A stretch of 64,000 bases of DNA. Source: Candidatus Magasanikiibacteriota bacterium (GTDB taxonomy: Bacteria > Patescibacteriota > Patescibacteriia > Magasanikbacterales > GWA2-37-8). The notes beneath the pieces were generated by a model. That model saw only the letters and a program-made list of their open reading frames with translations, searched no databases and was not told the origin of the DNA. Below are positions 3,957-55,284 of this stretch, piece after piece (position 1 is the first letter of the stretch; each line of letters opens with the position of its first letter). The stretch is taken from positions 99,569 to 163,568 of the forward strand of contig JAPLWQ010000003.1 in the NCBI GenBank assembly GCA_026396515.1, read 5' to 3'. The position numbers and the translations under genes were made by a program.

Positions 3957-3962
3957 TCTTAT

Positions 3963-4337: not shown

Positions 4338-4343
4338 CCAAGT

Positions 4344-5837
4344 ATGCTTATATCCGATTATCATAAATACCGCTTGTGCGAAATACTTCCCGGATTAAGC
4401 ATCTGGCTCACTCTGGCGCTTGCGGTAATACTGTCCTTTGTCAAGCCGCTATGGATGATTTATTTCATTATCGTATTTGATGTTTATTGGGTGCTGCGTG
4501 TGGTCTACTTTTCTTTTTATCTTATTTTGTCCTGGCGGCGATTCCGTATGGCGTTAAGAACCGATTGGCTGAATAAACTAAGAAATGAATTTCCGAATTG
4601 GGAAGAGAAAAAAAATGTTATTTTTTTGCCGCTTTACAATGAGGAATTTATCGTGATACAGGCAACGCTCGAAGCAATACTCAAATCAACCTATCCGGCT
4701 GAAAAGATGACAATAGTATTTTCCGGAGAGGCGCGCAATTTGCCGCATTGGCAAAATATGCAGCCGCAAATAATGAAATTGTATCAGGAAAGATTCGCCG
4801 ATATTGTATATTACACTCATCCGGCCAATTTGCCGGGCGAGATAGCCGGAAAAGGATCGAACCTGCATTACATGGAGTATCAGTTTAAAAAATATGCCGA
4901 TGAACGCGGTTGGAATTATATGAACATTATTGTTTCGGCATTTGACGTGGATACGGTGGTGCACGAACAGTATTTTGCTCATTTAAATTATATGTATTGC
5001 CGGCACCCCAGGCCGGACCACAGTTCTTTCCAGCCAGTCACATTGTACAACAACAACCTCTGGGAATCGCCGTCGGTTTTGCGCATCATGGCGTTTGGCA
5101 CCACTTTCTGGACAATGTTTTCTCTGGCCCGGTTGGATAATATGGTCACTTTTTCTTCGCACAGCATGAGTTTTAAGGCGCTGATGGATTGCGGCGGCCA
5201 TGCCAAAGATATTGTCAGTGAGGATTCGCGAATTTTTTATCAATGCTGGTTCAGCAATCAGGGCGATTATGAAGTTACGCCGTTATATATTCCGGTTTCC
5301 ATGGACACGGCGCGCGATGATAAATTGCTTAAAAGTTTAAAAAATTTATATTATCAACAGAGGCGCTGGGCCTGGGGGGTGGAGCATGTTCCTTATCTGA
5401 TGTGGCAATGGGGAAAATTTCCGCAAATTGGCCGGTTAAAAAAACTGGCTATGATATTTCATGAGTGGGAAGGAAAATGGAGTTGGGCGCTTGTGGCCAT
5501 ACTTATCACTTTGCTCGGCCGTCTGCCTTTGTGGGTGGCGCAGGAAGAGGTAAGGCAAAGCGCGTTGTTTTTCAACACGCCGCATGTTCTGGAAATAATG
5601 ATGACGGTGGCCATGCTCGGGTTGTTTATTTCAGCCATTATGTCCATGCTTATTTTGCCGCGCCGGCCGATAGGACACTCGCGCTATATGTATCTGATAA
5701 TGATTTTACAATGGGCTTTGCTCCCGGTATCCCTGATAGTTTTTTCAGCCATTCCCTGCATCGATGCGGTTACCCATTTAATGTTCGGAAAATATCTTGG
5801 TTTCAACGTATCTGCTAAAAAAAGGGCAGCAGTATAA
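4344..5837 (+). CDS. Family-2 processive glycosyltransferase (cellulose/chitin-synthase-like) integral membrane protein
   Basis: It has a QQRRWAWG (QxxRW) motif, a D,D,D-type GT-A region and multiple TM helices at both ends. Confidence 0.65.
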   Translation: MLISDYHKYRLCEILPGLSIWLTLALAVILSFVKPLWMIYFIIVFDVYWVLRVVYFSFYLILSWRRFRMALRTDWLNKLRNEFPNWEEKKNVIFLPLYNEEFIVIQATLEAILKSTYPAEKMTIVFSGEARNLPHWQNMQPQIMKLYQERFADIVYYTHPANLPGEIAGKGSNLHYMEYQFKKYADERGWNYMNIIVSAFDVDTVVHEQYFAHLNYMYCRHPRPDHSSFQPVTLYNNNLWESPSVLRIMAFGTTFWTMFSLARLDNMVTFSSHSMSFKALMDCGGHAKDIVSEDSRIFYQCWFSNQGDYEVTPLYIPVSMDTARDDKLLKSLKNLYYQQRRWAWGVEHVPYLMWQWGKFPQIGRLKKLAMIFHEWEGKWSWALVAILITLLGRLPLWVAQEEVRQSALFFNTPHVLEIMMTVAMLGLFISAIMSMLILPRRPIGHSRYMYLIMILQWALLPVSLIVFSAIPCIDAVTHLMFGKYLGFNVSAKKRAAV

Positions 5838-22086: not shown

Positions 22087-22159
22087 GCCGTTGTAGCTCA
22101 GTTGGTAGAGCAACTCCATGGTAAGGAGTAGGTCCGCGGTTCAAATCCGCGCAACGGCT
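22087..22159 (+). tRNA. tRNA-Thr (anticodon GGT)
   Basis: Manual cloverleaf: acceptor GCCGTTG/CAACGGC, D-loop AGTTGGTA, anticodon loop ATGGTAA, T-loop TTCAAAT. Confidence 0.8.
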
Positions 22160-22188
22160 CTGGGTTTACAAATAGTATCGCCTTGTAC

Positions 22189-22261
22189 GCCACCTTAGCT
22201 CAGCTGGTAGAGCAACGGTTTTGTAAACCGTAGGTCGTCGGTCCGAGCCCGACAGGTGGCT
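22189..22261 (+). tRNA. tRNA-Thr (anticodon TGT)
   Basis: Manual cloverleaf: acceptor GCCACCT/AGGTGGC, anticodon loop TTTGTAA. Confidence 0.8.
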
Positions 22262-22277
22262 CGCAGATCATTTAATC

Positions 22278-22359
22278 GGATGGGTTCCCGAGCGGTCAAA
22301 GGGGACAGACTGTAAATCTGTTGGCTCCGCCTTCGAAGGTTCGAATCCTTCCCCATCCA
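22278..22359 (+). tRNA. tRNA-Tyr (anticodon GTA) with a long variable arm
   Basis: Acceptor GGATGGG/CCCATCC, anticodon stem ACAGA/TCTGT, loop CTGTAAA, a 13-nt variable arm and T-arm GAAGG-TTCGAAT-CCTTC. Confidence 0.8.
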
Positions 22360-22386
22360 CATTGTAAATTAATAATATTGAAAAAT

Positions 22387-22551
22387 ATGTCGTCCAAAGA
22401 AAGAGAAAACATGATAAAGATGGAGTGTTCTGAATGTAAGCGCGTTAATTACTTCAGCAGAAAGAATAAAAAACTTCTGAAGAACCGCTTGGAGATAAAG
22501 AAATACTGCCGTCACTGCAAAAAGCACTTGGCACACAAGGAAACAAAGTAA
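22387..22551 (+). CDS. rpmG: 50S ribosomal protein L33
   Basis: [54 protein letters not shown] carries the L33 CxxC...CxxC zinc ribbon. The ORF-track extension back to 22321 would run through tRNA-Tyr. Confidence 0.85.
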
Positions 22552-22555
22552 TTTT

Positions 22556-22584
22556 AAGGGCAGGACTCTTGTCCTGCCTTTTAA
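22556..22584 (+). terminator. Intrinsic terminator after rpmG
   Basis: Hairpin AAGGGCAGGAC-TCTT-GTCCTGCCTT followed by TT. Confidence 0.55.
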
Positions 22585-22588
22585 ACAC

Positions 22589-22626
22589 GGGGGGGTTCGT
22601 ATAGTGGTAGTATTATGGTCTCCAAA
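22589..22626 (+). pseudogene. tRNA-like 5' fragment (Trp-like anticodon loop, no matching 3' half)
   Basis: GGGGGGTTCGTATAGTGGTAGTATTATGGTCTCCAAA has a classic D-loop AGTGGTAG. It shares GGTCTCCAAA with the tRNA-Trp 0.5 kb downstream. No complementary acceptor or anticodon 3' strands were found. Confidence 0.3.
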
Positions 22627-22668
22627 TTGCCTTGTTATTGGAGGAATGATGACGTATAATATAGACAT

Positions 22669-23112
22669 ATGGAAAGTAACATATGTCTAAAATGTCACAA
22701 GAGCAAGCTGATATCCGAATTCAGTATTAGAGATAAGGAATCAAGGCGTTTTCATAGCCTCTGCAAAGATTGCCATTCAAAATATAGGCGAGAGCACTAT
22801 TTGCGGAATAGAGAGAAATATTTAGTTAAGGCAAAACGATGGAACAAGAAACAGACGTTTTCTCTACGCGCATTTATCTTCGACTATCTCTCAAATCATC
22901 CATGTGTAGATTGTGGTTCGAAAGATGTTAGAGTTTTAGATTTCGACCATGAAAGAGATAAGAAAATGGGCATCGCTCAAATGATACGAAATTGTCATTC
23001 ATTGTCATCGGTAGAAAAAGAAATTAAAAAATGCAGAGTAAGATGTGCTAATTGCCATAGAATAAAAACATTTTCACGAGGAAATTTTTGGAAAAATAAA
23101 ATGGGTCCGTAG
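22669..23112 (+). CDS. HNH endonuclease with an N-terminal CxxC/CxxC zinc finger (homing-endonuclease-like)
   Basis: CVDCGSKDVRVLDFDHERDKK...CANCH is an HNH core. The stop codon lies inside the 5' end of tRNA-Trp. Confidence 0.7.
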   Translation: MESNICLKCHKSKLISEFSIRDKESRRFHSLCKDCHSKYRREHYLRNREKYLVKAKRWNKKQTFSLRAFIFDYLSNHPCVDCGSKDVRVLDFDHERDKKMGIAQMIRNCHSLSSVEKEIKKCRVRCANCHRIKTFSRGNFWKNKMGP

Positions 23113-23174
23113 TTTCAATGGTAAAACATCGGTCTCCAAAACCGAGGTTCCCCGTTCGAATCGGGGCGGGCCTG
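23103..23174 (+). tRNA. tRNA-Trp (anticodon CCA)
   Basis: Acceptor GGGTCCG/CGGGCCT (two G-U pairs), anticodon stem TCGGT/ACCGA, loop CTCCAAA, T-arm CCCCG-TTCGAAT-CGGGG. Confidence 0.8.
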
Positions 23175-40836: not shown

Positions 40837-41670
40837 ATGCCGAGAAAGGCAGGGTCCAAAATGGCTAAAGTTTTATCACATATTAAAGAAAAACCTTATT
40901 TCAATAAGGGTGATTTTGTTTTATATCATGGTGACTGCATAAACACCCTCGAGCAAATACCGGAAAATTCGGTTGATATGGTTTTTGCGGATCCACCCTA
41001 TCTTTTGTCGAATGGCGGTTTTACATGTGACGGCGGAAAAATGGTTAGCGTAAATAAAGGCAAGTGGGATGTGAGCAACGGTCTTAAACAGGACTTTGAA
41101 TTTCATTTATCATGGATCAATGCGTGCAAACGCGTTTTAAAACCCGGGGGCACTATTTGGATCAGTGGAACATATCATTCAATATACCAATGCGGCTTCG
41201 CGCTTCAAGTGGAAAAGTTTCATATATTAAACGATATTGCATGGTTCAAACCGAATGCTTCGCCGAACTTGAGTTGCCGTTTTTTTACTGCCAGCCATGA
41301 AACATTAATTTGGGCGAGGAAAGACAAAAAAGCAAAGCACATGTTTAATTATAAATTGATGAAAAACGGTGATTGGCCGGATGATTTTATTAAAAAGCCA
41401 AACTTACAAATGCGAAGCGTGTGGTCCATTTATCCACCAAAAAGAGACGAGAAGAAATTTGGAAAACATCCAACTCAGAAACCGATTGATTTGCTTGTTC
41501 GGATTGTTTTGGCTAGTACAGATAAGGGTGACGTGGTTTTGGACCCGTTTTCTGGGTCCGCCACAACTGGATTGGCCGCGATATTAAATAATCGTAAATT
41601 TATTGGTGTTGATTTAGATAGAAAGTATTTGGATTTATCGATAAAGCGTTTCAGAAATTTAAATGCATAG
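40837..41670 (+). CDS. Beta-class DNA methyltransferase (N6-adenine or N4-cytosine), DPPY then FxGxG order
   Basis: Motif IV is VFADPPYLL and motif I is LDPFSGSATTGLAA. An alternative start lies at 40861. Confidence 0.8.
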   Translation: MPRKAGSKMAKVLSHIKEKPYFNKGDFVLYHGDCINTLEQIPENSVDMVFADPPYLLSNGGFTCDGGKMVSVNKGKWDVSNGLKQDFEFHLSWINACKRVLKPGGTIWISGTYHSIYQCGFALQVEKFHILNDIAWFKPNASPNLSCRFFTASHETLIWARKDKKAKHMFNYKLMKNGDWPDDFIKKPNLQMRSVWSIYPPKRDEKKFGKHPTQKPIDLLVRIVLASTDKGDVVLDPFSGSATTGLAAILNNRKFIGVDLDRKYLDLSIKRFRNLNA

Positions 41671-41672
41671 CT

Positions 41673-42221
41673 ATGCCAGTAAAGAAACCGGCTCGTAAAA
41701 ATATCTACACACATACGATAGATTTGGCACCTCTTAATATTATTAATCATCCACGCGAGCAATTTCGTGAAATGTTGGAAAGAATGAAATATCGCGGTTA
41801 TGAAGTCGAAAGATTGGCCGACGGTAGAAAAATTATTGTTACCAAGCCGGGAGGAAAATTTGTTTTCGGCACAGTGAAGCGTGAAGATTTTATGGTATGG
41901 ATTTTTAATCCGCAAACTAATGAATTATGGTTGATATCACACAAGAATATTTTTGAAGACCTCGAAAATAAAGCCAATGTTGATAAACGGGCGACTTTAC
42001 AAATTATTGCTGCGCTTGAGCGCGTTTATTCTGGCGATGAGCCCGATGTCGTTCTCGCCGAAATGGATTTGTCTAATCCTACAGGCGAGGCACCGGAATT
42101 ATTGTTAAAAGCATATAAATGGATTTGGGGCCAAGAAGATTGCAATTATCCAACGGGTGAAGGTAGGGATATGTCAATGAATATTATCAGAGAATTAAAG
42201 ACGCGTATTATTGTTGAATAA
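41673..42221 (+). CDS. Hypothetical protein, candidate cognate Type II restriction endonuclease
   Basis: 182 aa, 2 nt downstream of the MTase. No clear nuclease motif was recognised. Confidence 0.35.
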   Translation: MPVKKPARKNIYTHTIDLAPLNIINHPREQFREMLERMKYRGYEVERLADGRKIIVTKPGGKFVFGTVKREDFMVWIFNPQTNELWLISHKNIFEDLENKANVDKRATLQIIAALERVYSGDEPDVVLAEMDLSNPTGEAPELLLKAYKWIWGQEDCNYPTGEGRDMSMNIIRELKTRIIVE

Positions 42222-42268
42222 TTTTTCTGGTAAAATGATAAAATATAGACGCTAAATTTAGCTAAAAT

Positions 42269-45200
42269 ATGCCTTTGGATAATCGAATCATCGATAATCA
42301 GAATAGCAACAATTTATACCGCGCGATATCAGAAGCCATTGGAGATGACACCCAAGGCATAGATATTGAAGTTGGATATTTTTATCTTTGCGGATTTGAA
42401 CTTTTATCAAAAAAACTTGATAAAATTAAAGTGCGAATCCTGGTTGGTTCTTATATTGATCCAGAAGCCATACCGACTTTAATAATGGAATCGATGAAAA
42501 AAACATCGGTAAATTTAGATCCGTTCCAACCCAGAAGTGTTCCGACTTCAAAACAGGAAAGAGTCAGAGCTCTTGGAGAAGGTATCAAGAAACTTGCAAA
42601 CCAAACATCAATATTTGACGCACCGGAATCTCAGGAATCATACTCAATTCTCGAAAGAAAACTCGAAGATGGTTCCCTTGAGATTAAAATGACCGAAACG
42701 CAAGCGCATGGAAAATGTTATGTAATCCATAATAAAAATGCCGGCAAAGTCTTTATGGGGTCGAGTAATTTTACTTATAATGGCCTAGTTGGACAGCAGG
42801 AAATAAACGAAACATTTGATACGGAAGAAAAATATAAGGAATATTCGAATAAATTTTCCGAGCGATGGGCCGATGCGCGCAATATCGTCATTCAAGAAAA
42901 AGGTAAATCAGACATGTTTTTGAGAAAATTTAAAGATGAACTTTGGATGAATGTGGTGCCGACTCCGTATCTTATGTATGTCCGGCTCCTTAATGAGATA
43001 TTTGGCGCTGAATACGAAGTTGATGTAACTAGCGCATCACAGGCTACACGAGGACAGTATTTGAACCTTTCATATCAGATGGATGCAGTAAAGATGGCAA
43101 TTGAAAGACTGAAAAATTATGATGGCGCTATCATAGCGGATGTTGTCGGTCTCGGGAAAAGTATTATAGCCACTACTATTGCTGTAAATTGTCCTGATTT
43201 AAAAACGATAATTATTGCCCCTCCGCATCTTGTTCCGATGTGGGAAGATTATGCCGAAGAGTTTAAACTTCGAGGGCCAAAGGTTTTTAGTGCTGGTAAA
43301 ATTGATGAGGTTTATGATAAATATAAAAATTCTACGGAGCCTATATTATTTATTCTCGATGAAGCGCATAGGTATAGAAATGAAGACACGCAAGACTATC
43401 AGTTGCTCCATCAGTTGACCCGCAGTAACGGTGAAAATAAGGTTTTAATACTATCAGCGACGCCCTTTAATAATGACCCGAGCGATATTTTTGCTTTGAT
43501 TAAACTTTTTCAAACTCCTGGCGCCGCCACACTTCGAACCGTAGAAAATTTATCAGCGAAGTTTGCAGATCTTGCGAATAGATATAAAACGCTTCGAAGA
43601 TTTCAAGCAAACGGTGCCATAACCACGGAACAGCGCAAAGAATTAGATAATAAACGCGATGCCATCGCCTCTGAGCTTCGACGATTACTTGAGCCTATTA
43701 TAATTAGACGTTCGAGGATAGACCTTGAAAAAATTACTCGTTACCGAGATGATTTGAAGGCTCAGAAAATTGAATTTTCAAAGATGAATGACCCAATTAT
43801 TCGGGAGTATAAATTAGGTAATTTCACTGACCTATATTTAGAAACCATAAACAAAATTGTGCCGGAAAAGAAAATTGTCGGCGGTTTAACCGGCGCACGA
43901 TACATGCCTACGACCTATGCTTTAGATATTGTAGATTTTACTAAAAAGTATCCGGATTTTGAAGATATTAGAACGGCTCAAATGAACGTAGCTTCCTTTA
44001 TGAGAAAACTTTTGGTAATGCGTTTTGAAAGTTCAAGAGCCGCATTCCAAAGTACTCTTCAAAAATTTATCGATTCACATCAAAGAATTCTCGATTGGGT
44101 AGAAAAAAAACAATTAGTACCAATTTCCAAGAAAGCCTATATTCCATCACCGGATGAGATGCCGGAAGAAGATGCGGAGGAAATTAATTCGGAAGAACAT
44201 GCAGAATTCGCAAACACTGAAGTCGCAAATAATAAAAAGATTGTTTTTGTTAAACTTGAGGATCTCAATGAAAAATTTGTACCTGAGCTTAAACATGATA
44301 TCAGCGTACTTACAGATATTTACGAAAAATGGTTTGGTTCGCAATCGCCGTTTTTATCGATGCCGGACCCCAAATTAAAACAACTCACTTTAGACATTCA
44401 AGAACGTCTAGCCAACGATCCGAATCGGAAAATTGTTATTTTTAGTATGTACGCAGATACAGTTGTTTATATAGGTGAAGAGCTCAAAAACGCTGGTATC
44501 CCAACCTTTGTATATACTGCTCAAAACAGCAATAGCGATCGCAAAATAATCAGAGAGAATTTTGACGCCGGAATCCCAACCGATAAACAGTCCGATGATT
44601 TCAGGGTTCTTGTTGCAACCGATGCTTTGAGCGAGGGTGTCAATCTGAATAGGGCAGGACGAGTTATTAATTATGATATTCCATATAATCCAACACGAGT
44701 CATACAGCGGGTAGGCCGGATAAACCGAATAGATAAAAAAATGTTTAAGGAGCTTTTTATTGATAACTATTTTCCTACCGAACATGGCGAGAAGGAAGTC
44801 AATATCAGGGGTGTGTCAACTTTAAAGATGCAGATATTTAATTCCGTGGTAGGTAATGATTCGCGCACCCTTACAGAAGATGAAACTCCGGAATCTTTTT
44901 TCATTGACGAATTTAGAAAGGCGACAACCGAAGAAGAGAGTTGGGATACTGTACACCGAGAAGCATACGAGCAAGCAAAACGAAATATACAAACAATGGA
45001 ATTAGCAAAAAAGATTCCGATGAGAGCGCGCATTGTGAGAACAAATAAGCCAGTTCAATTGGGGGTGGGGGTTGGTATTCGAGGGCAAAATAAAATATAT
45101 GCGCTCGAAACTAATGGACGGGCTGAGTTGGTTGATGCAGAAAAAGTATTAAATCATTTTGCTGCGAAACAGGACGAAGTTAGCGAGAAAGCCGATGACC

Positions 45201-45556
45201 AATTCGGGTTGGTTTTTGCCATATTGAAGGAAAAACTTTTTGAAAAGCCGCCCATGGGGCAAATGTCGAGAAACCGAACAGAGGTCGTGCGCATATTACG
45301 AAGTATTCGAGAAACTCAATATCAAAATTACCGCGATGATTTAATGAAAGTTGTCAGCGATCTTGACGACCTTTCAGAGGGGCAACTCAAAGCAATAATT
45401 AAGTTAGCAAAGAAGACTGATTTGTCTGAAGACCGATTAGTCGAAGCTATTATCGAAATAGCGCCGGAACAGCAGGTAAAGGTGAGCTTGGATAGACAAA
45501 ATAATGAAGCAAAATCGGCAAATCTTCTATTATTTACGCAAGAGCACCGCATATGA
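42269..45556 (+). CDS. PLD(HKD)-nuclease domain fused to an SNF2-family helicase
   Basis: The N-terminus has an HKD-like AHGKCYVIHNKNAGKVFMGSSNFT. The helicase has motifs I LGKS, II LDEAHRYRN, III LILSATPFNN and VI QRVGRINR. Confidence 0.8.
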   Translation: MPLDNRIIDNQNSNNLYRAISEAIGDDTQGIDIEVGYFYLCGFELLSKKLDKIKVRILVGSYIDPEAIPTLIMESMKKTSVNLDPFQPRSVPTSKQERVRALGEGIKKLANQTSIFDAPESQESYSILERKLEDGSLEIKMTETQAHGKCYVIHNKNAGKVFMGSSNFTYNGLVGQQEINETFDTEEKYKEYSNKFSERWADARNIVIQEKGKSDMFLRKFKDELWMNVVPTPYLMYVRLLNEIFGAEYEVDVTSASQATRGQYLNLSYQMDAVKMAIERLKNYDGAIIADVVGLGKSIIATTIAVNCPDLKTIIIAPPHLVPMWEDYAEEFKLRGPKVFSAGKIDEVYDKYKNSTEPILFILDEAHRYRNEDTQDYQLLHQLTRSNGENKVLILSATPFNNDPSDIFALIKLFQTPGAATLRTVENLSAKFADLANRYKTLRRFQANGAITTEQRKELDNKRDAIASELRRLLEPIIIRRSRIDLEKITRYRDDLKAQKIEFSKMNDPIIREYKLGNFTDLYLETINKIVPEKKIVGGLTGARYMPTTYALDIVDFTKKYPDFEDIRTAQMNVASFMRKLLVMRFESSRAAFQSTLQKFIDSHQRILDWVEKKQLVPISKKAYIPSPDEMPEEDAEEINSEEHAEFANTEVANNKKIVFVKLEDLNEKFVPELKHDISVLTDIYEKWFGSQSPFLSMPDPKLKQLTLDIQERLANDPNRKIVIFSMYADTVVYIGEELKNAGIPTFVYTAQNSNSDRKIIRENFDAGIPTDKQSDDFRVLVATDALSEGVNLNRAGRVINYDIPYNPTRVIQRVGRINRIDKKMFKELFIDNYFPTEHGEKEVNIRGVSTLKMQIFNSVVGNDSRTLTEDETPESFFIDEFRKATTEEESWDTVHREAYEQAKRNIQTMELAKKIPMRARIVRTNKPVQLGVGVGIRGQNKIYALETNGRAELVDAEKVLNHFAAKQDEVSEKADDQFGLVFAILKEKLFEKPPMGQMSRNRTEVVRILRSIRETQYQNYRDDLMKVVSDLDDLSEGQLKAIIKLAKKTDLSEDRLVEAIIEIAPEQQVKVSLDRQNNEAKSANLLLFTQEHRI

Positions 45557-48500
45557 TAAATCCTATTTTTTCAAATAAATATAACGAAGAAACATTTGCT
45601 GAATTTATACAAGGTATTATTCCGAGTCTTTCTTTAGATAAAAAACGAGCTGAGGTTCGCACCGGTTTCAAATCAATCCAACAAATTGCAGAAGCCAGTG
45701 AAAATAAACTCGATTTAGTCGTTTTTGTAGCCCAGCTAGATTCATCGCTTCATGCTCGTGTCGAAATTACAAAGAATACTTATGCCGTGCTCAAAAGTCA
45801 TGCTAGGTCTAATGCTTTGGTTGCCTATATTTCAGATGATTCTTCGGAATGGCGCCTCTCTCTCATCACCACCAAGGTTGCGAGGACAAAAGACGGAACA
45901 AAAGAATCAATATCAAACCCACGTCGTTTTTCTTATGTTTTGGGACCAAATGCAAAAGTGGCGACGCCTTCAAATATGCTACGAGGAACCATCGACTCAA
46001 TTATTGATCTGGAAAATAAGTTTTCTTTGGCGGTAGTTAGTAAGGAATTCTTTACTCAGATAGCGACACAATATTCTAAGCTTGTTGGAGGAACACGAGG
46101 AGAGGGACGAAAGGCAATGGTTTTTGAAAGGACGCTTAAGCTCGGAGATACAAATGATGCCGTCAATGCAAATTTTGCCATTCGTCTTATCGGTAGGTTA
46201 GTCTTTTGTTGGTTTCTGAAACAGAAAAAAGGACATCTAGGTAGTCCGCTCATACCGTCTGAGATACTATCTGTTTCTGCTGTAAAAACAATTGGCGATT
46301 ATTATCATTCAGTTTGTGTCCCACTTTTTTTCGAGGTTTTGAATAAACCACAACCCTCTCGACCAACAATTTTTTCTTATTCAGAATTATTCGATCAAGT
46401 TCCTTTTCTAAATGGTGGATTATTCCAAGACCATACAGAAGACAACCATAAATTTAATCGCGCTACCGGAATGAGCGAGCGGCGCGGTGTGGTTATTGTG
46501 CCCGACATTTGGTTTTCTGAATTGTTTCAAGTTTTTGAGGAATACAATTTTACAATTGATGAAAATACTTCGATAGATACGGAACTCTCGATTGATCCGG
46601 AAATGTTGGGTCGAATTTTTGAAAATCTTTTGGCGGAGGTGAACCCGGAAACTGGTGCCAGCGCACGGAAATCAACCGGAAGCTTCTATACCCCTCGTGA
46701 GATTGTTGACTTTATGGTAGAAGAATCACTTATTGCTCATCTCAAAACAAAAACCAATATATCCGAAGAAAAGCTACGGGCTCTTTCGTCTTACGATTTG
46801 GACGATGACACATCTCATCCAATTGATCAGCAAGAACAAAAACTGCTTGTTGAGGCTATACATAATACAACGGTTCTAGATCCCGCCTGTGGTTCCGGCG
46901 CTTTCCCGATCGGCGTTCTTCAGAGATTGGTGCACATGCTTGGCGTTCTTGATCCGGAATGTTCGATTTATTTGAGCAGGATTCCACCTGAAATGCGCAG
47001 GCAACTTCAAAAACATAGCCTTACATATGTCAGAAAACTCGGCGTAATTCGAGAGTGCATACACGGGGTGGATATACAGCCTGTTGCTATAGATATTTCT
47101 CGCTTAAGATGTTTTCTGACACTTGTCGTTGACCAACAAGTTGACGACGATGCCCCAAACAGGGGTATTGAGCCATTGCCAAACTTAGATTTTAAATTTG
47201 TTTGTGCCAACACGCTTATAAAACCGCCGGTCCATGAAGGCCCGCTATTCGGCGATGAATTTGCAGATGCATTAGGAGAACTTATTGACGAATATTTTGC
47301 GCCGGTCGATCAGTTGCACAAATTGGAGACAGCACGAAAATTACAACAGTTGATAAGCGAAAAAACAAACAAAGAACTCGAAAGCATCATTAAGTCATAT
47401 AGCTATCTGAAAGATGAAAAACATAAACAAGCGTTGGCTCAAATAAATGAAAAGTTAGATAGTGAAAGAATACGAATAAATTCACTCTGGAAAAGTTACG
47501 AAAATATCTTTCAAAATAAACCCGTTGGTTTTTTTGATACCAGATATTTTTTCCCCGTTGTATTTCGTGGCGGTGGTTTTGATATTGTGATAGGTAATCC
47601 GCCGTATGTTAGACAGGAAGAATTTTCAGGTATTAAGCCAGTTCTAAAAGAACAATACGGTGATTTTTTTAATGGACGTGCTGATCTATATACATACTTC
47701 ATCGCAAGAGGGACGACACTACTAAAAGAACGAGGAATTTTATCTTTTATAACATCAAATAAGTTTTTTGTTCGGGGTTATGGTGAAAACACAAGAGCAT
47801 TGCTTACAAAAGATATATCATTAAAAAAAGTGGTGAACTTCGGTGAGCTTCCTGTTTTTCAAGCATCTGTAGATTCAGCGATTGTGCTAGCGGAAAACAC
47901 AAAACCAAAAGAAAAAGACTCGCTTGATTTTGCTCAAGCAAAGACAGGGGCTGATATTAAAAACATCCATGAATTTTTTGAAACAAAAAAAGGAACTATA
48001 AAATTAACTTCTTTGGGATCGGGGGTATGGTCATTGCAGGATCCCGAAAAGTTAACAGTTTTAAATAAAATAAAGAGTCAAAAGAATACACTCGGGGCAT
48101 ATTACGATGGTAATATTTTTGCTGGACTTAAAACTGGGTTAGACGGCGTCTACGTAATCACAAGAAGCTTTCGGGACAAGTTGATTAATGCTGATAAAAA
48201 ATATGAAGTAGTTATTAAACCCTGGCTTAGAGGAAAAGATGTAAAAAAATGGAATCCTAACTTCCATGATTTGTGGGTAATAAATCTACGTTCTTCCTCG
48301 AACTTTACGTGGCCCTGGTCCGGGATGAGTAATGTTGTGGCTGAAACGATATTTCAATCGCAGTATCCTATTTTATATGACTATTTAATTCAGCACAAAA
48401 AAAAGATTTCAAAAAGAAGTGATCAGGGCGATTACTGGTGGGAACTGAGGTCTTGTGCTTACGATGACAAATTCAATACAAGAAAAATCATATATCCTGA

Positions 48501-48912
48501 CTGTGCAAAAGAGATGAGGGCCACATATGATGAAACGGGGCTATACGGAACACTTGCTATGTACATAGTGAGCTACGACCCCATAATTATGGGAATATTA
48601 AATAGTAAGCTTTTCGATTGGTATTCAAGAATGACATTTGCAACATTTGGCGATCCATGGAATGGTGGGAGAATAATTTTCAAAACAATTTATATGTCAA
48701 AAGTCCCAGTGCCTGATACTAAAAATAATACCGGTGTATTGATTAAGGGTGGTGTTGATAAAATTTTGGCAATTACCAAATCGAGCGATTATTTAGAAAA
48801 TTCTGCAAAAAAAGCAGAAGTCAAAAAATACGAAGAACAAATTGACAAGCTAGTTTATGAACTCTACGATCTGAAACCGGAAGAAATCGAAATTGTAGAA
48901 AATTTGAAATAA
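45553..48912 (+). CDS. MmeI/Eco57I/PglX/DrmMI-like gamma-class N6-adenine MTase, possible single-chain Type IIG/L RM enzyme
   Basis: Motif I is LDPACGSGAFP and motif IV is GNPPYV. The ~300-aa N-terminal domain contains D-x8-ExK (AQLDSSLHARVEITK). It overlaps the upstream gene by 4 nt (ATGA). Confidence 0.75.
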   Translation: MINPIFSNKYNEETFAEFIQGIIPSLSLDKKRAEVRTGFKSIQQIAEASENKLDLVVFVAQLDSSLHARVEITKNTYAVLKSHARSNALVAYISDDSSEWRLSLITTKVARTKDGTKESISNPRRFSYVLGPNAKVATPSNMLRGTIDSIIDLENKFSLAVVSKEFFTQIATQYSKLVGGTRGEGRKAMVFERTLKLGDTNDAVNANFAIRLIGRLVFCWFLKQKKGHLGSPLIPSEILSVSAVKTIGDYYHSVCVPLFFEVLNKPQPSRPTIFSYSELFDQVPFLNGGLFQDHTEDNHKFNRATGMSERRGVVIVPDIWFSELFQVFEEYNFTIDENTSIDTELSIDPEMLGRIFENLLAEVNPETGASARKSTGSFYTPREIVDFMVEESLIAHLKTKTNISEEKLRALSSYDLDDDTSHPIDQQEQKLLVEAIHNTTVLDPACGSGAFPIGVLQRLVHMLGVLDPECSIYLSRIPPEMRRQLQKHSLTYVRKLGVIRECIHGVDIQPVAIDISRLRCFLTLVVDQQVDDDAPNRGIEPLPNLDFKFVCANTLIKPPVHEGPLFGDEFADALGELIDEYFAPVDQLHKLETARKLQQLISEKTNKELESIIKSYSYLKDEKHKQALAQINEKLDSERIRINSLWKSYENIFQNKPVGFFDTRYFFPVVFRGGGFDIVIGNPPYVRQEEFSGIKPVLKEQYGDFFNGRADLYTYFIARGTTLLKERGILSFITSNKFFVRGYGENTRALLTKDISLKKVVNFGELPVFQASVDSAIVLAENTKPKEKDSLDFAQAKTGADIKNIHEFFETKKGTIKLTSLGSGVWSLQDPEKLTVLNKIKSQKNTLGAYYDGNIFAGLKTGLDGVYVITRSFRDKLINADKKYEVVIKPWLRGKDVKKWNPNFHDLWVINLRSSSNFTWPWSGMSNVVAETIFQSQYPILYDYLIQHKKKISKRSDQGDYWWELRSCAYDDKFNTRKIIYPDCAKEMRATYDETGLYGTLAMYIVSYDPIIMGILNSKLFDWYSRMTFATFGDPWNGGRIIFKTIYMSKVPVPDTKNNTGVLIKGGVDKILAITKSSDYLENSAKKAEVKKYEEQIDKLVYELYDLKPEEIEIVENLK

Positions 48913-48956: not shown

Positions 48957-50585
48957 ATGGGGTCAAAATTCCTTTCAGCTCTTTCTGAAGAGGCGTATCT
49001 TAAACTAACTGATAAGTTGTATGGGATACAAAGTGGGCAGTGTTTTATATGCCAAAAAAAGATTGATTTAGCGCTTCAAACCACTAATATAGATCACATC
49101 ATACCACTTAAAACTCGGGGTAAGGATTCGGAAGATAATTTCGCCTTAACACACGAGAGTTGCAATAAATCGAAACTAGATGCAAATTTAAATATTGCAA
49201 GAATTTTGTGTCACCTTAAAGAAATACAGGACCGAGTTTTCGTCGATAGTGGTCGGGCGGCATCCCTTAAGGATGTTTTGGCTTCCTTTGGTGGTTCGAA
49301 GTATGATTTTAAACATAAGATTAGTAATGATAAGATTGAATTTAGTTTTTCAGACGTTAGAGAAAATGATATACAAATCAAAGATATTTATGAAGATATT
49401 TTAACTGGTAATCAGACTGGTAAAATTGAAAAGACTTGTTTTACAGACGTCCCCATTGAATACATTTATCACGATGACGCAATAAATCCACGTGGCATAA
49501 ACACAAGCATAAGTCGACTAGTAAAGGAATTTTATAAAGGCAATCCCCAGCTGCACTTATGTTTAGCACGAATCGATGATAATAAGTTAAAAATTTTTGA
49601 TGGTCAGCATAAAGCAGTCGCGCAAATATTACTTGGGAACAAGAGGCTGCTGCTCCGTATCTTCATTGACCCAAACGTAGATAGACTGACTGAGACAAAT
49701 ACTAACGCGGGGAGTACTTTGAGGCAAATTGCGTTTGATAAATCAATAATGCGCCAATTGAATAATACGTTATACACTGAGAAGATAGATAAATTTCAAG
49801 CGGACCACCACTTGGCAGAGGACGATTTCTCGTTTTCAGAACAGCAACTCGTCGATTATTTTAAGGGTGAAAATGTAAATATGAAAAAATATATTTCTGA
49901 TAGTATAAAACACTCCATTACATATTCAAAAGAAAATAAACTAAAAGATTACATAGACTTTGAAGGTAAGGCGAAGGAGTTACCAATTTCTTATAGTGCT
50001 TTTAGCAAAGCAATTCTCGAGCAAGTTGTCGATTCTAAACAATTTTTGGATACACCTATTAATTACAAGTCCGAAGAAGGTCTGAATCCACGAGAAATGC
50101 AGATAAACCAAATTGTTGAATTGCTTAATATAATTGCTGAAGAGATATATATCGGTAAATTTAAACCAGAAATTGGAGTATACCGTATTGAACAAAAGAT
50201 TATTGACAAGAAAGATGTAGAAATTACTACCGAGCATTTGACTGCTTATCGTATGAGCAAAGAAGAAATAATTTTCAATTGGTTTATATATTTAAACAAA
50301 GTCATTGAAAGTTATTTTAATAATACGGGTAGGATTTACGAAGCCAACCAATTATTTATGGAGAAGTTTGACGATCAATTGTGGGCAAACATACGGAATT
50401 TTATTAACAATTTATCCATCCTTCCTCTCTGGAAAGATAAGTCTATGGCAAGCACAATTTTTGCAGGTAAGAAGAATTATGATTATTGGAAAGAAATTTT
50501 TGAAAAGGGAAAAAGTCCTGACGGGGCGCAAGTTCTTGCCACGCCATTAAATTTTATTGAAATGATAAGAAGCGAAAAACAATAA
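48957..50585 (+). CDS. N-terminal HNH nuclease fused to a DndB/ParB-like (DGQHR-type) domain
   Basis: The HNH core is CFICQKK...DHIIPLKTRGKDSEDNFALTHESCNKSK. FDGQHKAVAQIL is a DGQHR/DGQQR-like motif. Confidence 0.6.
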   Translation: MGSKFLSALSEEAYLKLTDKLYGIQSGQCFICQKKIDLALQTTNIDHIIPLKTRGKDSEDNFALTHESCNKSKLDANLNIARILCHLKEIQDRVFVDSGRAASLKDVLASFGGSKYDFKHKISNDKIEFSFSDVRENDIQIKDIYEDILTGNQTGKIEKTCFTDVPIEYIYHDDAINPRGINTSISRLVKEFYKGNPQLHLCLARIDDNKLKIFDGQHKAVAQILLGNKRLLLRIFIDPNVDRLTETNTNAGSTLRQIAFDKSIMRQLNNTLYTEKIDKFQADHHLAEDDFSFSEQQLVDYFKGENVNMKKYISDSIKHSITYSKENKLKDYIDFEGKAKELPISYSAFSKAILEQVVDSKQFLDTPINYKSEEGLNPREMQINQIVELLNIIAEEIYIGKFKPEIGVYRIEQKIIDKKDVEITTEHLTAYRMSKEEIIFNWFIYLNKVIESYFNNTGRIYEANQLFMEKFDDQLWANIRNFINNLSILPLWKDKSMASTIFAGKKNYDYWKEIFEKGKSPDGAQVLATPLNFIEMIRSEKQ

Positions 50586-50686
50586 TTTTTTAATGTCCTA
50601 TTTTTTGATGCCGGAAAGTACAAATATTGGGCAATGAATAATATTCTAAACAGAGCGAAGACACAGAAGAAGTGGCAGTGAAGTCC

Positions 50687-50715
50687 TTGACATCTTTCTC
50701 ATTTTGTGTTATGTT
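50687..50715 (+). promoter_or_regulatory. Sigma70 promoter with an extended -10
   Basis: -35 TTGACA (50687-50692), 17-nt spacer, TGTTATGTT extended -10 (50707-50715). Confidence 0.5.
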
Positions 50716-50721
50716 ATAAAT

Positions 50722-50942
50722 GTAGCCCATTAAATTCTATTAGCGCGAAACGCGCCGCATAATTCTGCCAAAAACAAGGCAACCAGGGAAATCTGCTGGG
50801 AGCCATATGGATTATGACGACTAACTGCTAAAGCGGTTGGGAGATTTCATTCTAAGAGGTAGCAACCCGCCTACGTTTCATTCGTGAAACTACGGACGGG
50901 CAAGTATCTTTTGATGAAATCTCTTAGCCGCTTTTTTGTTTT
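50722..50942 (+). ncRNA. Structured RNA of unknown family (~220 nt), an sRNA or a cis-regulatory leader
   Basis: A 21-bp helix (50830-50850 paired with 50914-50934) encloses a GTTTCA-TTCG-TGAAAC hairpin. GCGCG-AAA-CGCGC and CCAG-N9-CTGG hairpins are also present. It ends in GCCGC-T6 and GTTTT. Confidence 0.4.
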
Positions 50943-50986
50943 CTTAAAGGTCGAACCGCTACGGCGGAAAGGAAAGCAATTCGGCT

Positions 50987-51523
50987 ATGATTAATTCATT
51001 AACATATACACATATGAGAAGAACTAAGCAAAAGACACATAAAGCAAGTGTTCAAGTTGATAACCCGCCATTGTTTATTGGCTTTATCATGGAAGAGAAG
51101 GCCTTTTCGTTTGATGTTTATTTAATAAACAATTCGAACTGGAAATATAAAAGCGTAACCATTTTTACCGGCGCATTTATGACGGTTGACGACGACCTGC
51201 TGGAGACGAGTAAGGTCGTTAAAGTTAAGGGTCCTCTTGGAGCTTATTCAAGCATAAAAATCGATAGAAGTGATTGGAATGAATTGGATTTTGTGATCTG
51301 GTATCACCTTGATCTTGTTCGCGCGGATGATACGGTCGAGAAATATTGGTTTTGTTTACCTAAAGGTGGCGGTGATTACGACAATAAGGTGATTAAATTG
51401 CCAATAATTAACAGGAAAGGCATGAGCATAGAATTGGAGGCCAGAAATGGTGAATGTATCGCAGAGGAGACCAAAACTATTGAGATGAAATCAAAGTATC
51501 ACAAATTTAGTAAGGAATATTAA
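50987..51523 (+). CDS. Hypothetical protein
   Basis: 178 aa with the RBS GGAAAGGAAAG upstream. No motif recognised. Confidence 0.45.
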   Translation: MINSLTYTHMRRTKQKTHKASVQVDNPPLFIGFIMEEKAFSFDVYLINNSNWKYKSVTIFTGAFMTVDDDLLETSKVVKVKGPLGAYSSIKIDRSDWNELDFVIWYHLDLVRADDTVEKYWFCLPKGGGDYDNKVIKLPIINRKGMSIELEARNGECIAEETKTIEMKSKYHKFSKEY

Positions 51524-51548: not shown

Positions 51549-51806
51549 ATGAGTATTAATGATCTAAAATATATTAATGATGATGAATTGGATGGGTACT
51601 CGTTACTCGGAAAGGGAACAGGCACTAGCTTGCAGCACTGCGCAAGTATGGGTGTACGCCATTGCAAAGATTTTCTGAATCGAGTACGCGGATACAGGAT
51701 TGAGCAAAGCGACACCAGTGAAATGATGTATAAGGCCTTAAAGGAAATAGGGGATAAAAGAGAGTGGCCGATGTATATCACAGTGTCATTTTACGAAAAA
51801 AAATGA
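51549..51806 (+). CDS. Small hypothetical protein
   Basis: 85 aa. Its stop codon lies inside a perfect inverted repeat. Confidence 0.4.
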   Translation: MSINDLKYINDDELDGYSLLGKGTGTSLQHCASMGVRHCKDFLNRVRGYRIEQSDTSEMMYKALKEIGDKREWPMYITVSFYEKK

Positions 51807-51886: not shown

Positions 51887-52414
51887 ATGAATTCTCAAAA
51901 TAGACAAAGAAACTCTTTTGTTGCTTTATGCGATTATGCTTCACGTTCCAATTGGTGTTGGAATATTGTTTGTACAACCTGCGGGCATGGTGCGTTTAAA
52001 GTTTCGTATGCAAAAATAATCAATGGTCAAAATCCTGATGATGAATCATTTTGGCCATATGGCAAGGAAAATGACGATTCACTTAAAGAAATGAATGTTA
52101 ATAGAGTTTTTCTTGGTGATGCGAGTGCCGATGCCCAAATTAAACTTGCGTCTGTTGTCGCAAAAGCCAAATTATCCGATATCCAATCTGTGGCGAAATT
52201 TCCTGATTGGTTAGGGTATATTGGTCTTGTTATCCATCATTGTCCTAACCAGGAAGCCAGGAAGATTATATCCGATTCGTTTCTTTCGCAATTTATCGAA
52301 TTATTGAAGGATAAAGCTGGAATTCGCGAATATTTAAGCCAGAAACAAGCGAAACAAGAATTATTAGATATTAATGATTTAAGTAGAATTGAAAATGAAA
52401 TTGTTAATCACTAA
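51887..52414 (+). CDS. Hypothetical Cys-containing protein
   Basis: 175 aa with CWNIVCTTCGHG. No family recognised. Confidence 0.45.
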   Translation: MNSQNRQRNSFVALCDYASRSNWCWNIVCTTCGHGAFKVSYAKIINGQNPDDESFWPYGKENDDSLKEMNVNRVFLGDASADAQIKLASVVAKAKLSDIQSVAKFPDWLGYIGLVIHHCPNQEARKIISDSFLSQFIELLKDKAGIREYLSQKQAKQELLDINDLSRIENEIVNH

Positions 52415-52447: not shown

Positions 52448-53215
52448 ATGCTCGGCGCCATAGCAGGGGATATTATCGGTTCAGTTTACGAATGGAATAA
52501 TATTAAAACAACGGATTTTCCGTTGTTTTCAGACCGTTCGCATTTTACGGATGATACGGTAATGACTGTCGCTGTGGCCGAATGTTTAATAAGCGGGAAA
52601 GATTATTTTTTAACCTTTAAAGAAATTGGCCAAAAATATCCTGATGCCGGGTACGGCGATGCTTTCAGGCAATGGCTTTTTTCACGGCAGACCGAACCGA
52701 ACAATAGTTTTGGAAATGGCGCTGCAATGCGGATTAGCCCGATTGGTTTTTTCTTTAATGATTTGGATTCGGTTTTATCCAAAGCAGTGAAATGTACGAA
52801 TATAACTCACGATCATCCTGAAGCGCGGAAAGGCGCGCAGGCGGTTGCGGCAGCCATATTTTTGGCACGAACCGGCAAAACAAAAGCGGAGATTAAGGAT
52901 TATGTTGAAAAAAGTTTTGGCTATGATTTGAGCAGGCGTTTGGATGATATCCGGCCAAATTATAAATTTGATGCCAGTTGCCAGGGCTCGGTGCCTGAAG
53001 CGATTATTGCTTTTCTGGAATCCACTGATTACGAAGACACCGTACGGAAGGCGGTTTCTCTTGGTGGCGATAGCGACACAATTGCCTGCATAACCGGCGG
53101 AATCGCCGAGGCGTTTTATAAAGGCGTGCCTAATGATATAATTACCAAGACCCGGGCGTTATTAACACCTGATTTATTGGATGTCGTTGATAAGTTTTAT
53201 GAACATATTAAATAA
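52448..53215 (+). CDS. ADP-ribosylglycohydrolase family protein (DraG/ARH3-like)
   Basis: LGAIAGDIIGSVYEW...FTDDTVMTVAVAE are the N-terminal Mg-binding motifs. GGDSDTIACITGGIAEAFY is the C-terminal motif. Confidence 0.8.
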   Translation: MLGAIAGDIIGSVYEWNNIKTTDFPLFSDRSHFTDDTVMTVAVAECLISGKDYFLTFKEIGQKYPDAGYGDAFRQWLFSRQTEPNNSFGNGAAMRISPIGFFFNDLDSVLSKAVKCTNITHDHPEARKGAQAVAAAIFLARTGKTKAEIKDYVEKSFGYDLSRRLDDIRPNYKFDASCQGSVPEAIIAFLESTDYEDTVRKAVSLGGDSDTIACITGGIAEAFYKGVPNDIITKTRALLTPDLLDVVDKFYEHIK

Positions 53216-53802: not shown

Positions 53803-55284
53803 ATGGCGGCATCAGTGTTAGATATGCTTACAAAATCCCAATTCATGAATTATGTTAAGTGCCCGGTGTATTTTTGGCTTGCCAAACACCGGCCTGATTT
53901 GATTCCGGAAGATACGGCGGCGACACAGCGGCTTTTTGCCATGGGCAAAGAGGTGGATTTGCTGTCCCGCCAGCTTTTTTCTGGTGGTGTTGAAACCGCC
54001 GGTTTTAACCAAGAGGGTTGGGAGAACACGCAGGCGCTACTTGCCGGCTCTGCCAAGGTCATTTTTCAGCCCACAGCGGTGGCTGAACCGCTGACCTGCC
54101 GGGCGGATATCCTGACGCGCAATGGCGCAAAGTGGGACCTTCACGAGGTGAAACAGTCAAACAGTGTCCAGCCGAAACATATTTTTGATGTTGGTTTCCA
54201 GCGTATTTGTTTTGAGAGTGCCGGCGTGAAAATTGGCCGGTCATATTTGGTGCATCTCAACCGCGAATATGTCCGCCAGGGTGCGATTGAGCCGGAAAAA
54301 TTGTTTATTTCGGAAGATATCACGGATGAGGTTCTGGAAAAGATGGATGAGATAAAAGAGGAGATTGCCAAGGCACTTGAAATATTGAAATGGACCAAAG
54401 AGCCGGACAAGCGTTTGATTAAACTCTGCAGTACGCCGAAAAACTGTGAATATTTGAAATATTATTGTGAGGGCGTGGCAGGCGTGCCGGAAATAGCGGC
54501 GGAAATCGGATCCAAACATTTGCTCGCGTTAATAAAGCGGGGGATTATCGCGCCGGAAAAATTATCCGCTGAAATACTTACGAAAGTTGGTTATGAGCCG
54601 GAAGAGCCGTTTACGAAAATTGACGCGCCGTCTATCCGCCGGGAACTGAAAAAGTTGGAATATCCTTTGTATTTTTTTGATTACGAAACATATGGCGAGG
54701 CTATTCCGCCTTTTGACGGCACGAGGCCACATCAGCAAATTCCTTTTCAATATTCCTTACATATTAAAGATTCACCGGATGCGGAAATCAGGCATCTGGA
54801 ATTTTTGGCCACGAAGTTTGAAAATCCTGTGTCCGAATTGCTGGCGCAATTAAAACGCGACATCGAGCCGAAGGGAAGCGTGATTGTATGGTTTGAATCA
54901 TTTGAAAAATCGCGCAACGAGGAAATGGCAAAAATGATGCCGGAGTATGCTGATCTTTTGGATGATTTGAACGAGCGAATTTTTGACCTGTATCTTATTT
55001 TTAAAATCAAGAGTGAGATGTACTCTGACAGTGAGTTTCAAGGAAGCGCGTCACTCAAGGCGGTCTTGCCGGTACTTTGTCCGGAACTTTCCTATGAATC
55101 ATTGGAAATACAGGAGGGCGGTACCGCTTCATCAAGCTGGCCTATTTTGACGAGCGACAAAACGCCGGTTGCGGAAAAAGAAAAATTGAAGAATAATATG
55201 CTGGAGTATTGTCAGCGGGATACGGAGGCGATGGTGGGGATTTTGAATAAAGTGTGCGAGGATATTGATTGTAAGATTCAATAA
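53803..55284 (+). CDS. Cas4/RecB-like PD-(D/E)xK nuclease (4-Cys cluster) fused to a DUF2779-like C-terminal domain
   Basis: There is an N-terminal Cys (VKCP) and CSTPKNCEYLKYYC. CRADIL...LHEVKQS is a D/E-x-K motif. The C-terminus has YFFDYETYG. Confidence 0.55.
   Translation: MAASVLDMLTKSQFMNYVKCPVYFWLAKHRPDLIPEDTAATQRLFAMGKEVDLLSRQLFSGGVETAGFNQEGWENTQALLAGSAKVIFQPTAVAEPLTCRADILTRNGAKWDLHEVKQSNSVQPKHIFDVGFQRICFESAGVKIGRSYLVHLNREYVRQGAIEPEKLFISEDITDEVLEKMDEIKEEIAKALEILKWTKEPDKRLIKLCSTPKNCEYLKYYCEGVAGVPEIAAEIGSKHLLALIKRGIIAPEKLSAEILTKVGYEPEEPFTKIDAPSIRRELKKLEYPLYFFDYETYGEAIPPFDGTRPHQQIPFQYSLHIKDSPDAEIRHLEFLATKFENPVSELLAQLKRDIEPKGSVIVWFESFEKSRNEEMAKMMPEYADLLDDLNERIFDLYLIFKIKSEMYSDSEFQGSASLKAVLPVLCPELSYESLEIQEGGTASSSWPILTSDKTPVAEKEKLKNNMLEYCQRDTEAMVGILNKVCEDIDCKIQ

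Follow-up and report, generated by a model that had tools for sequence, protein, structure and literature searches.

The stretch of DNA analysed here (the window) comprises 64,000 nucleotides of a Candidatus Magasanikiibacteriota bacterium (GenBank assembly GCA_026396515.1, contig JAPLWQ010000003.1, positions 99,569–163,568 of the forward strand). It carries a folded RNA at 50722–50942, flanked by a promoter and by a hairpin with a U-run and followed by a co-oriented gene cluster whose first open reading frame (ORF) encodes 178 residues (50987–51523; the NCBI start, at 51014, gives 169 residues). All window coordinates refer to the plus strand. The RNA is real and conserved, and neither Rfam 15 nor the literature that could be searched describes it.

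The promoter consists of a −35 box (TTGACA, 50687–50692) and an extended −10 box (TGtTATGTT, 50707–50715), with the TATGTT hexamer at 50710–50715 and the TG two bases 5′ of it. The spacer is 17 nt long, and the promoter scan gave 10 of 12 matches plus the TG, which confirms the TTGACA-N17-TGnTATGTT promoter proposed in an initial annotation of this DNA. Transcription would start near 50722, within a TGTAG motif (50721–50725); several homologues in an alignment of 61 sequences carry a TATAAT-like box 5–8 nt 5′ of the same (T)GTAG motif. The region 50720–50945 folds at −79.2 kcal/mol (z = −5.13), and none of 200 dinucleotide shuffles was as stable; the minus strand of the same region folds more weakly (z = −3.64). 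The minimum-free-energy fold contains a GCGCG/CGCGC hairpin, a GGC..CCAG/CUGG..GCC hairpin and a long hairpin (50830–50934, termed P5 below) with an inner UUCG hairpin.

All structural elements listed in the initial annotation were found in place, with a single loop misread. Its 21-bp closing helix corresponds to 50830–50850 paired with 50914–50934, wobble pairs included; the inner CCCGCC/GGACGGG helix and the GUUUCA-UUCG-UGAAAC hairpin are both found in the fold; the GGC..CCAG-N9-CUGG..GCC hairpin lies at 50778–50804; and the GC stem plus U6 at the end is a CCGC base followed by U6GU4. The GCGCG hairpin is present as well, but its loop is an AAA triloop (GCGCG-AAA-CGCGC, 50743–50755) and not a GAAA tetraloop. 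The view that two ultra-stable tetraloops are a hallmark of this RNA was not borne out, since one is this triloop and the other lies inside a non-conserved insertion.

The U6GU4 run (50932–50942) abuts the G+C-rich base of P5 (GCGG/CCGC). A G+C-rich stem followed by a U-run, as in an intrinsic terminator, is thus seen in both the sequence and the fold, and termination is predicted to occur at this point. At least four U residues are kept at the U-run in essentially all homologues. The terminator scan reported nothing, because it takes only loops of 3–8 nt and the P5 hairpin is long and branched.

The first relative was found at a locus with a 41%-identical downstream protein, where the homologous RNA has long identical stretches and a different hairpin tip. 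An 18-mer from the 3′ hairpin (CGGUUGGGAGAUUUCAUU) was then used as the anchor for a scan over one genome per species, which returned at least 93 stretches, about 80 of them true homologues. Most of these records are labelled as Patescibacteria (Magasanik-, Uhr-, Moran-, Staskawicz- and Saccharibacteria, and others); the other labels, which are those of metagenome-assembled genome (MAG) records with the binning as deposited, are Bdellovibrionales, Micavibrio, Gastranaerophilales, Omnitrophota, uncultured Gammaproteobacteria, Planctomycetia, Flavobacteriaceae and Nitrospiraceae. A scan of viral contigs with a 15-mer gave 93 matches, all by chance except one (L081), and no BLASTN match to the RNA was detected in plasmid and phage collections.

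Members of the family are ~190–220 nt long. The alignment of 61 homologues reveals a common plan, with a hairpin P1, a helix P2 that closes a junction with P3 and P4, a linker containing GACU, the long P5 and the U-run; RNAalifold assigned 40 pairs, 23 of which show compensatory change. Covariation was tested in a trimmed, 48-sequence alignment against a named structure of 44 pairs. Standard pairing is present in 95.3% of the cells, compared with 37–44% when the 3′ partners are slid by 1–3 columns, and none of 500 shuffles reached any of the five measures used. The covariation check suggested by the initial annotation thus disclosed strong compensatory change, with double-sided changes in 24 of the 44 pairs (264 cells). 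P2, P3, P4 and the tip of P5 covary, and the unpaired nucleotides GGGAAAUCUGC, UAGG and GACU are near-invariant in the 48 sequences. Wobble pairs in P5 are also conserved (U-G in 41 of 48 sequences, G-U in 32 of 48 and 43 of 48), which identifies the plus strand, and RNA, as the functional form. With a covariance model built from the 48 sequences (R1), the window yields a single copy, at 50754–50937, with a score of 103.9 bits (E = 1.5e-23); minus-strand matches also appear, because P5 is palindromic.

The family was not recognized by existing models. At gathering thresholds, Rfam 15 identified only four transfer RNAs (tRNAs) in the whole window. A permissive scan of 50580–51000 returned microRNA and long non-coding RNA noise at 5–22 bits, against thresholds of 50–114, and a permissive scan of five typical homologue loci returned nothing at the RNA. 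The Rfam check that had been recommended therefore leaves the window RNA without a match to a known family, with tmRNA, SRP, RNase P, 6S, T-box and all riboswitch classes included, even at E ≤ 10, and the proposal of a functional RNA of unrecognized family is upheld by a large covarying family. Full-text literature searches found no description of the RNA or of its motif strings, and no link of small alarmone hydrolases (SAH, see below) or of the candidate phyla radiation (CPR) with such an RNA or with S-adenosylmethionine (SAM) riboswitches. The RNA resembles orphan leader motifs such as raiA and skipping-rope RNA in that these were found by conservation and covariation and are widespread in uncultured bacteria; it is, however, a separate family that none of these models matches. 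Matches to skipping-rope RNA (RF02924) flank the copy in L150, at 3635–3717 (−) and 1719–1801 (+), with 36.9 bits (threshold 36.7) and 28.6 bits respectively.

The window copy can be followed helix by helix. P1 is the triloop hairpin described above, and homologues have a hairpin of other sequence (GUCCG..CGGAC and similar) at the same place. Two interleaved helices, CUGNA/UGCAG and GUCCG/CGGAC, are possible in the P1 region of homologues (for example L154 6390–6420 and L001 5712–5742), and would represent a compact pseudoknot or a second two-state element, whereas the window P1 forms only a simple hairpin in this region (alignment columns ~45–90). The 5′ strand of P2, CG-CAUAAUUC (50756–50765), pairs with the 3′ strand GGAUUAUG-A-CG (50809–50819), as read from the sequence and in agreement with the extent of the R1 match and with the covariation; P2 is the most covarying helix of the family, with compensatory changes in all 10 pairs. 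An A-rich joiner of 12 nt, UGCCAAAAACAA (50766–50777), takes the place of the P3 found in most homologues, and L185 likewise has no P3. P4 (50778–50804) is supported by the fold and by covarying stems, and consists of GGC-AA-CCAG, the loop GGAAAUCUG and CUGG-GA-GCC. It includes the near-invariant 11-mer GGGAAAUCUGC (50786–50796); across the 48 sequences, nine of its 11 positions never vary and conservation at the remaining two is at least 90%. The linker (50818–50833) contains the conserved CGACUAAC (50818–50825) and AAAG, with its GACU invariant or nearly so in the same set. The conserved 18-mer occupies 50834–50851 of P5 (50830–50934), whose tip is enlarged by a lineage-specific insertion of ~60 nt (50852–50913) with the CCCGCC/GGACGGG helix and the UUCG hairpin. 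This insertion is missing from most homologues, which carry a short CAGC-loop-GCUG tip. The window copy is a variant in which P3 is absent and P5 is enlarged.

The P4 loop offers a candidate switch. Its GAAAUCU (50788–50794) is the exact complement of AGAUUUC (50842–50848) in the 5′ strand of P5, with seven contiguous Watson-Crick pairs at −8.5 kcal/mol; seven pairs were reached by 61 of 100,000 shuffled loops and 285 of 100,000 random 11-mers. The loop resembles AAAUCUC in the 3′ strand of P5, so that the two can compete for one partner, as in an antiterminator. The sole variant of the loop, A to G, retains the pairing as G-U; in two of the three sequences that have it, the P5 3′ strand has changed likewise, versus one of 78 other sequences (p of ~0.003, uncorrected for shared ancestry). 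A switch between the P4 loop and P5 is thus suggested, and not proven, by these sequence relationships.

The next ORF is co-oriented with the RNA in 66 of 75 loci, and its ATG mostly lies 45–90 nt 3′ of the U-run, with a median gap of ~64 nt. Such a near-constant position and orientation before an ORF, with narrow spacing, argues against one of the two main rival explanations, a stand-alone trans-acting small RNA (sRNA) of ~220 nt that has its own promoter and P5 as terminator, uses the P4 loop as a seed for target RNAs and lies near ORFs that merely co-travel in the island. An sRNA would suit the promoter and the strong terminator-like hairpin with its U-run, the exposed and near-invariant P4 loop, and a P5 that is conserved beyond the need of a plain expression platform. 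Several copies per genome are also possible: L105 has two, 4.7 kb apart (616–814 and 5300–5498 (−)), each before a homologous zinc-ribbon ORF of 128–133 residues, and the copies in L131 and L162 come from one MAG. An sRNA is nevertheless unlikely, given also that the promoter scan found no separate promoter between the U-run and the window ORF, that conservation continues past the U-run, and to the ATG in one subclass, and that cis-acting SAM-I riboswitches stand in before the same gene families (see below).

Conserved features are found between the U-run and the start codon. In the window, a GGUCGA motif (50949–50954) follows the U-run, and either GGUCGA or UAGUCC is present 3′ of the U-run in most loci. 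A small hairpin, CCGC-UACG-GCGG (50956–50967), can be read in the sequence between the U-run and the ORF, and comparable small G+C-rich hairpins occupy that place in homologues. In a subclass of 10 loci with unrelated ORFs, conservation extends from P5 through UAGUCC, the small hairpin and an A-rich stretch to the ATG and ends there. The element is therefore contiguous with the translation start, as expected for a leader. The same GGUCGA/UAGUCC motif is also seen 3′ of SAM-I aptamers in the same islands, for example in L358 (~1470–1477) and L367 (~2946–2953).

Long-range pairings of this region were considered and were not supported. A helix P6, between the GACU of the linker and GGUCGA or UAGUC, has duplex energies no better than those of cross-locus or random controls; at least five contiguous pairs are possible in 69% of loci, versus 23% of random windows and 68% of cross-locus combinations, and no covariation is seen. 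GGUCGA/UAGUC is thus a conserved motif whose pairing with the linker is unproven. A helix P7, which would join the U-run to the A-rich stretch that precedes the start codon, is no better than in upstream regions of other genes, and only in individual loci does it look persuasive by eye. The P4 loop can also pair with a GCAGAUU before the ATG; this pairing is limited to one subclass and is not enriched overall (8% vs 7%).

ORF clustering and Pfam searches showed that the commonest downstream partner is an HD_4 protein. Its profile matches solved SAH structures (7qoe, 7qoc and 4yf1; E = 1e-40 to 1e-32); Mesh1 and the RelA/SpoT hydrolase domains are matched too. In 35 of 82 copies of the RNA, an SAH motif is found in the 2 kb downstream, often in the first or second ORF. 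Other first ORFs encode small zinc-ribbon or uncharacterized proteins, several of which are fused to SAH elsewhere; the functional theme shared by the downstream genes is only partly understood. The association was also sampled from the protein side, with one RNA-linked SAH as the query and the contigs of eight relatives at 54–62% identity. Six of these eight lineages have the RNA upstream (121–134 bits), sometimes with one small ORF between, while one has a SAM-I riboswitch and one has neither. The 18-mer, whose invariance in the genome set follows from its use as the search anchor, is identical at 17–18 of 18 positions in the three lineages from this protein-side sampling for which the sequence was inspected.

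An RNA that is a partner of the downstream protein and binds or neutralizes it, in a type III toxin-antitoxin or ribonucleoprotein module with a leaky terminator, would also place the RNA gene beside a protein gene. ToxIN-type loci have the order promoter, structured RNA, terminator and protein gene. The present loci share this order with ToxIN, CptIN and TenpIN, as well as their setting in defence or mobile islands, and a minimal module of the RNA and SAH stands alone in a tRNA gene cluster (L375). However, the RNA has no tandem repeats (none in 50500–51100), the SAH are detoxifying enzymes and not toxins, to judge from the molecule names of the structure matches, and one conserved RNA precedes many unrelated proteins, which is a misfit with a specific RNA-protein pair. 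A type III antitoxin RNA was accordingly rejected, the downstream proteins being diverse and not endoribonuclease toxins, and any module of this kind is very unlikely.

SAM-I riboswitches (RF00162) were detected in the same islands as the RNA (L147, L151, L144, L367, L372 and L378–L380). Located elements are L358 1361–1471, L359 1353–1463, L367 2841–2947, L372 2835–2941, L378 2062–2168, L147 5076–5182, L151 2789–2936 and L144 6532–6630 (−); RF00162 matches these neighbouring elements at 46–65 bits and never the leader RNA. In one lineage, SAM-I occupies the slot of the RNA before SAH (63–65 bits, threshold 44.4), and a recurring array consists of the leader RNA, a small zinc-ribbon ORF, SAH, SAM-I and an ORF of 95–98 residues. 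The protein behind the RNA in L001 has an N-terminal domain homologous to a 147-residue ORF that follows SAM-I in L358, L359 and L147 (E = 2e-22), and its C-terminal domain belongs to the family of the 178-residue protein of the window. The 85-residue ORF of the window is homologous to ORFs right behind SAM-I in L367 and L151 (E = 6e-11). No other evidence argues as strongly for the RNA being a cis-regulatory sensor as the interchangeability of SAM-I and the RNA before the same cassettes. The two also co-occur in single loci (L367, L372, L378, L147 and L151) and, being side by side, probably respond to different signals. In CPR islands, SAM-I heads SAH and uncharacterized small ORFs with no evident link to methionine or SAM metabolism, and such leaders may tie the SAM level to stress or conflict genes.

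The likeness to SAM-I extends to the layout. Both RNAs precede a co-oriented gene as part of its 5′ untranslated region, have a covarying multi-helix junction and invariant joining or loop nucleotides followed by a hairpin plus U-run, and use the same slot before SAH and the 147-residue and 85–95-residue ORF families. In contrast to the four-way junction of the SAM-I aptamer, that of the leader RNA is three-way (P2/P3/P4), with a long hairpin of conserved sequence after it. Two general features of a riboswitch are present as well, namely a conserved, covarying structured domain with invariant unpaired nucleotides and a position in the 5′ leader of co-oriented genes with a common theme.

The RNA is therefore interpreted, with a probability of about 0.6, as the 5′ leader of the gene cluster from 50987, that is, a cis-acting attenuator and a candidate riboswitch of a new class. 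The initial annotation had left open an sRNA, a riboswitch or attenuator leader and an RNA of the neighbouring system; the leader is the best supported of these, because of the fixed position and orientation, the conservation to the ATG in one subclass and the replacement by SAM-I, and the link to defence did not hold (see below). In the proposed mechanism, transcription would begin near 50722, and the sensor part would fold first, with P1 and then P2 closing the junction with P4 (and with P3 in most relatives). The long P5 with its U-run would form next, and transcription would halt ~45 nt before the ORF. If instead the GAAAUCU of the P4 loop paired with the AGAUUUC of the P5 5′ strand, it would compete with the P5 3′ strand, and the winning partner would set termination versus read-through into the downstream genes. 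What tips the balance would most likely be a small molecule that binds the P2/P3/P4 junction; the element would then be a riboswitch.

Several observations weigh against this interpretation. The RNA is absent at 160 SAH loci from metagenome and viral contigs, mostly at 30–40% identity, and no ligand can be deduced, because the downstream genes are diverse and mostly uncharacterized. Given the conserved sequence after the U-run, transcripts must often run beyond P5, and control could be exerted at translation or RNA stability instead of termination. The pairing of the P4 loop with P5 is beyond a covariation test, because both sides are near-invariant and one is the search anchor. The window copy, with no P3, might be a weakened or differently tuned member of the family. 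Finally, P5 is the supposed expression platform and yet is among the most conserved parts, an uncommon trait for a riboswitch and a hint of some additional role, for example with a protein or RNA partner.

The other main rival, a cis-acting leader that senses a macromolecule (an RNA-binding protein, a tRNA or the ribosome), would have its binding sites in the AAUCU-type repeats of the P4 loop and the P5 3′ strand and in the wobble-rich base of P5. It draws on the same evidence for cis action as the riboswitch, on the conserved P5 wobbles and on the identical A-to-G change in the P4 loop and the P5 3′ strand, which would also fit one factor that reads both. No conserved candidate gene for such a protein was found alongside the RNA among the ORF clusters, the downstream proteins are too diverse for autoregulation, and there is no T-box match. 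Macromolecule sensing is rather unlikely, and the small-molecule leader is preferred.

The 178-residue protein encoded directly downstream of the window RNA is 100% identical to a Candidatus Magasanikbacteria MAG protein and has two other relatives only. Its family is found directly behind the RNA in L001, L097 and L162, and at least four loci have a member of it behind the RNA. AlphaFold modelled the protein poorly (mean pLDDT of 54.6), and Foldseek matched it to generic beta-sandwiches only (TM < 0.4). The co-oriented cluster continues with ORFs of 85 residues (51549–51806) and 175 residues (51887–52414) and with an ADP-ribosylglycohydrolase (52448–53215; Pfam E = 3e-39), and also includes a small membrane-like protein and a DUF2779 nuclease-like protein. 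The ADP-ribosylglycohydrolase, like the RNA-linked SAH elsewhere, reverses a modification or signal typical of toxins. Eight loci encode a DUF2779 protein, with a Cas4-like nuclease domain, no more than a few kb from the RNA and often immediately upstream of it; the one in the window is at 53803–55284.

Upstream of the RNA is a low-G+C island (35–39% G+C at 42–52 kb). The defence island (40837–48912) encodes a type II DNA methylase, an uncharacterized protein of 182 residues, a PLD-SNF2 helicase (1095 residues) and a type IIG restriction-modification enzyme (1119 residues), the last two ORFs overlapping by 4 nt. It is followed by a 542-residue HNH protein (48957–50585), whose HNH domain at residues ~20–75 matches best the HNH models of Cas9/IscB (E = 1e-8 to 5e-4); its other ~460 residues have no family match, apart from a weak gasdermin-like match at residues 104–144. 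The HNH protein, with its Cas9-like motif, was considered as a partner of the RNA and rejected, as it is not a conserved neighbour in other loci. The same holds for the type IIG and SNF2 genes, so that the suspected link of the RNA to the neighbouring defence genes was not sustained. A retron msr-msd was also rejected: no reverse transcriptase domain was detected in the ORFs flanking the window RNA (39.9–60.8 kb) or in the 15 largest ORF clusters, among the representatives inspected or scanned. The four tRNA genes of the window form a cluster at 22087–23174.

Other copies of the RNA lie next to tRNA genes. In L375/L376 (1296–3047), a minimal unit of the leader RNA (1803–1942) and the SAH gene (2001–2783) lies inside a tRNA gene cluster, and further copies adjoin tRNA or transfer-messenger RNA (tmRNA) genes (L150, L111, L102 and L126). 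This placement suggests a small mobile cassette. In some loci, SAH cassettes are followed by genes for FtsK/SpoIIIE-like translocases or are bounded by a serine recombinase or transposase (L348–L366, ~2800–4800; L367/L372, 3800–4790), and they may be part of CPR integrative or conjugative elements.

Unrelated ORFs joined to the same conserved upstream block, together with serine recombinase, FtsK-like and transposase genes near several loci, could also be explained by an element that acts as DNA and not as RNA, such as a recombination site or the single-strand hairpin of a mobile cassette. The compensatory changes preserve helices and not sequence, the plus strand folds better than the minus strand, and promoter-like and terminator-like signals lie on either side. 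A single-stranded DNA element was rejected on the grounds that the conserved G-U pairs function only as plus-strand RNA, and a DNA-level role is extremely improbable.

Returning to the leader interpretation, the gene context allows a tentative and rather speculative proposal for the signal. The RNA would represent a new riboswitch class for a conflict-related nucleotide, for example (p)ppGpp or (p)ppApp made by toxin-type synthetases of competitors, hosts or defence systems, and would turn on enzymes that undo the damage; these would be SAH in most genomes and, here, a cluster that includes the ADP-ribosylglycohydrolase. An alarmone as the ligand is suggested by gene context alone. With such a ligand, the circuit would be of the same kind as that of the ppGpp and phosphoribosyl pyrophosphate (PRPP) riboswitches (ykkC subtype 2); the architecture of the leader RNA differs, and the ykkC models gave no match at E ≤ 10 in the window or at E ≤ 1 in five typical loci.

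A large part of bacterial diversity belongs to CPR/Patescibacteria, in which gene regulation is almost uncharted. Dozens of CPR lineages carry the present RNA as a highly conserved leader, as do records labelled as predatory or host-dependent bacteria, and the RNA is a candidate for the control of alarmone hydrolases and of many small uncharacterized genes in defence or mobile islands. It is short enough for synthesis and ligand screening, and thus offers a testable handle; if it is a riboswitch, its ligand would reveal the signal to which the cassettes respond and hence the purpose of their uncharacterized genes. The presence of SAM-I before the same cassettes was unexpected and suggests that metabolite sensing is wired to conflict or stress genes. 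If the proposal for the ligand is correct, the leader RNA and SAM-I would together form an RNA-based layer that senses stress or attack in these ultra-small, host-dependent bacteria.

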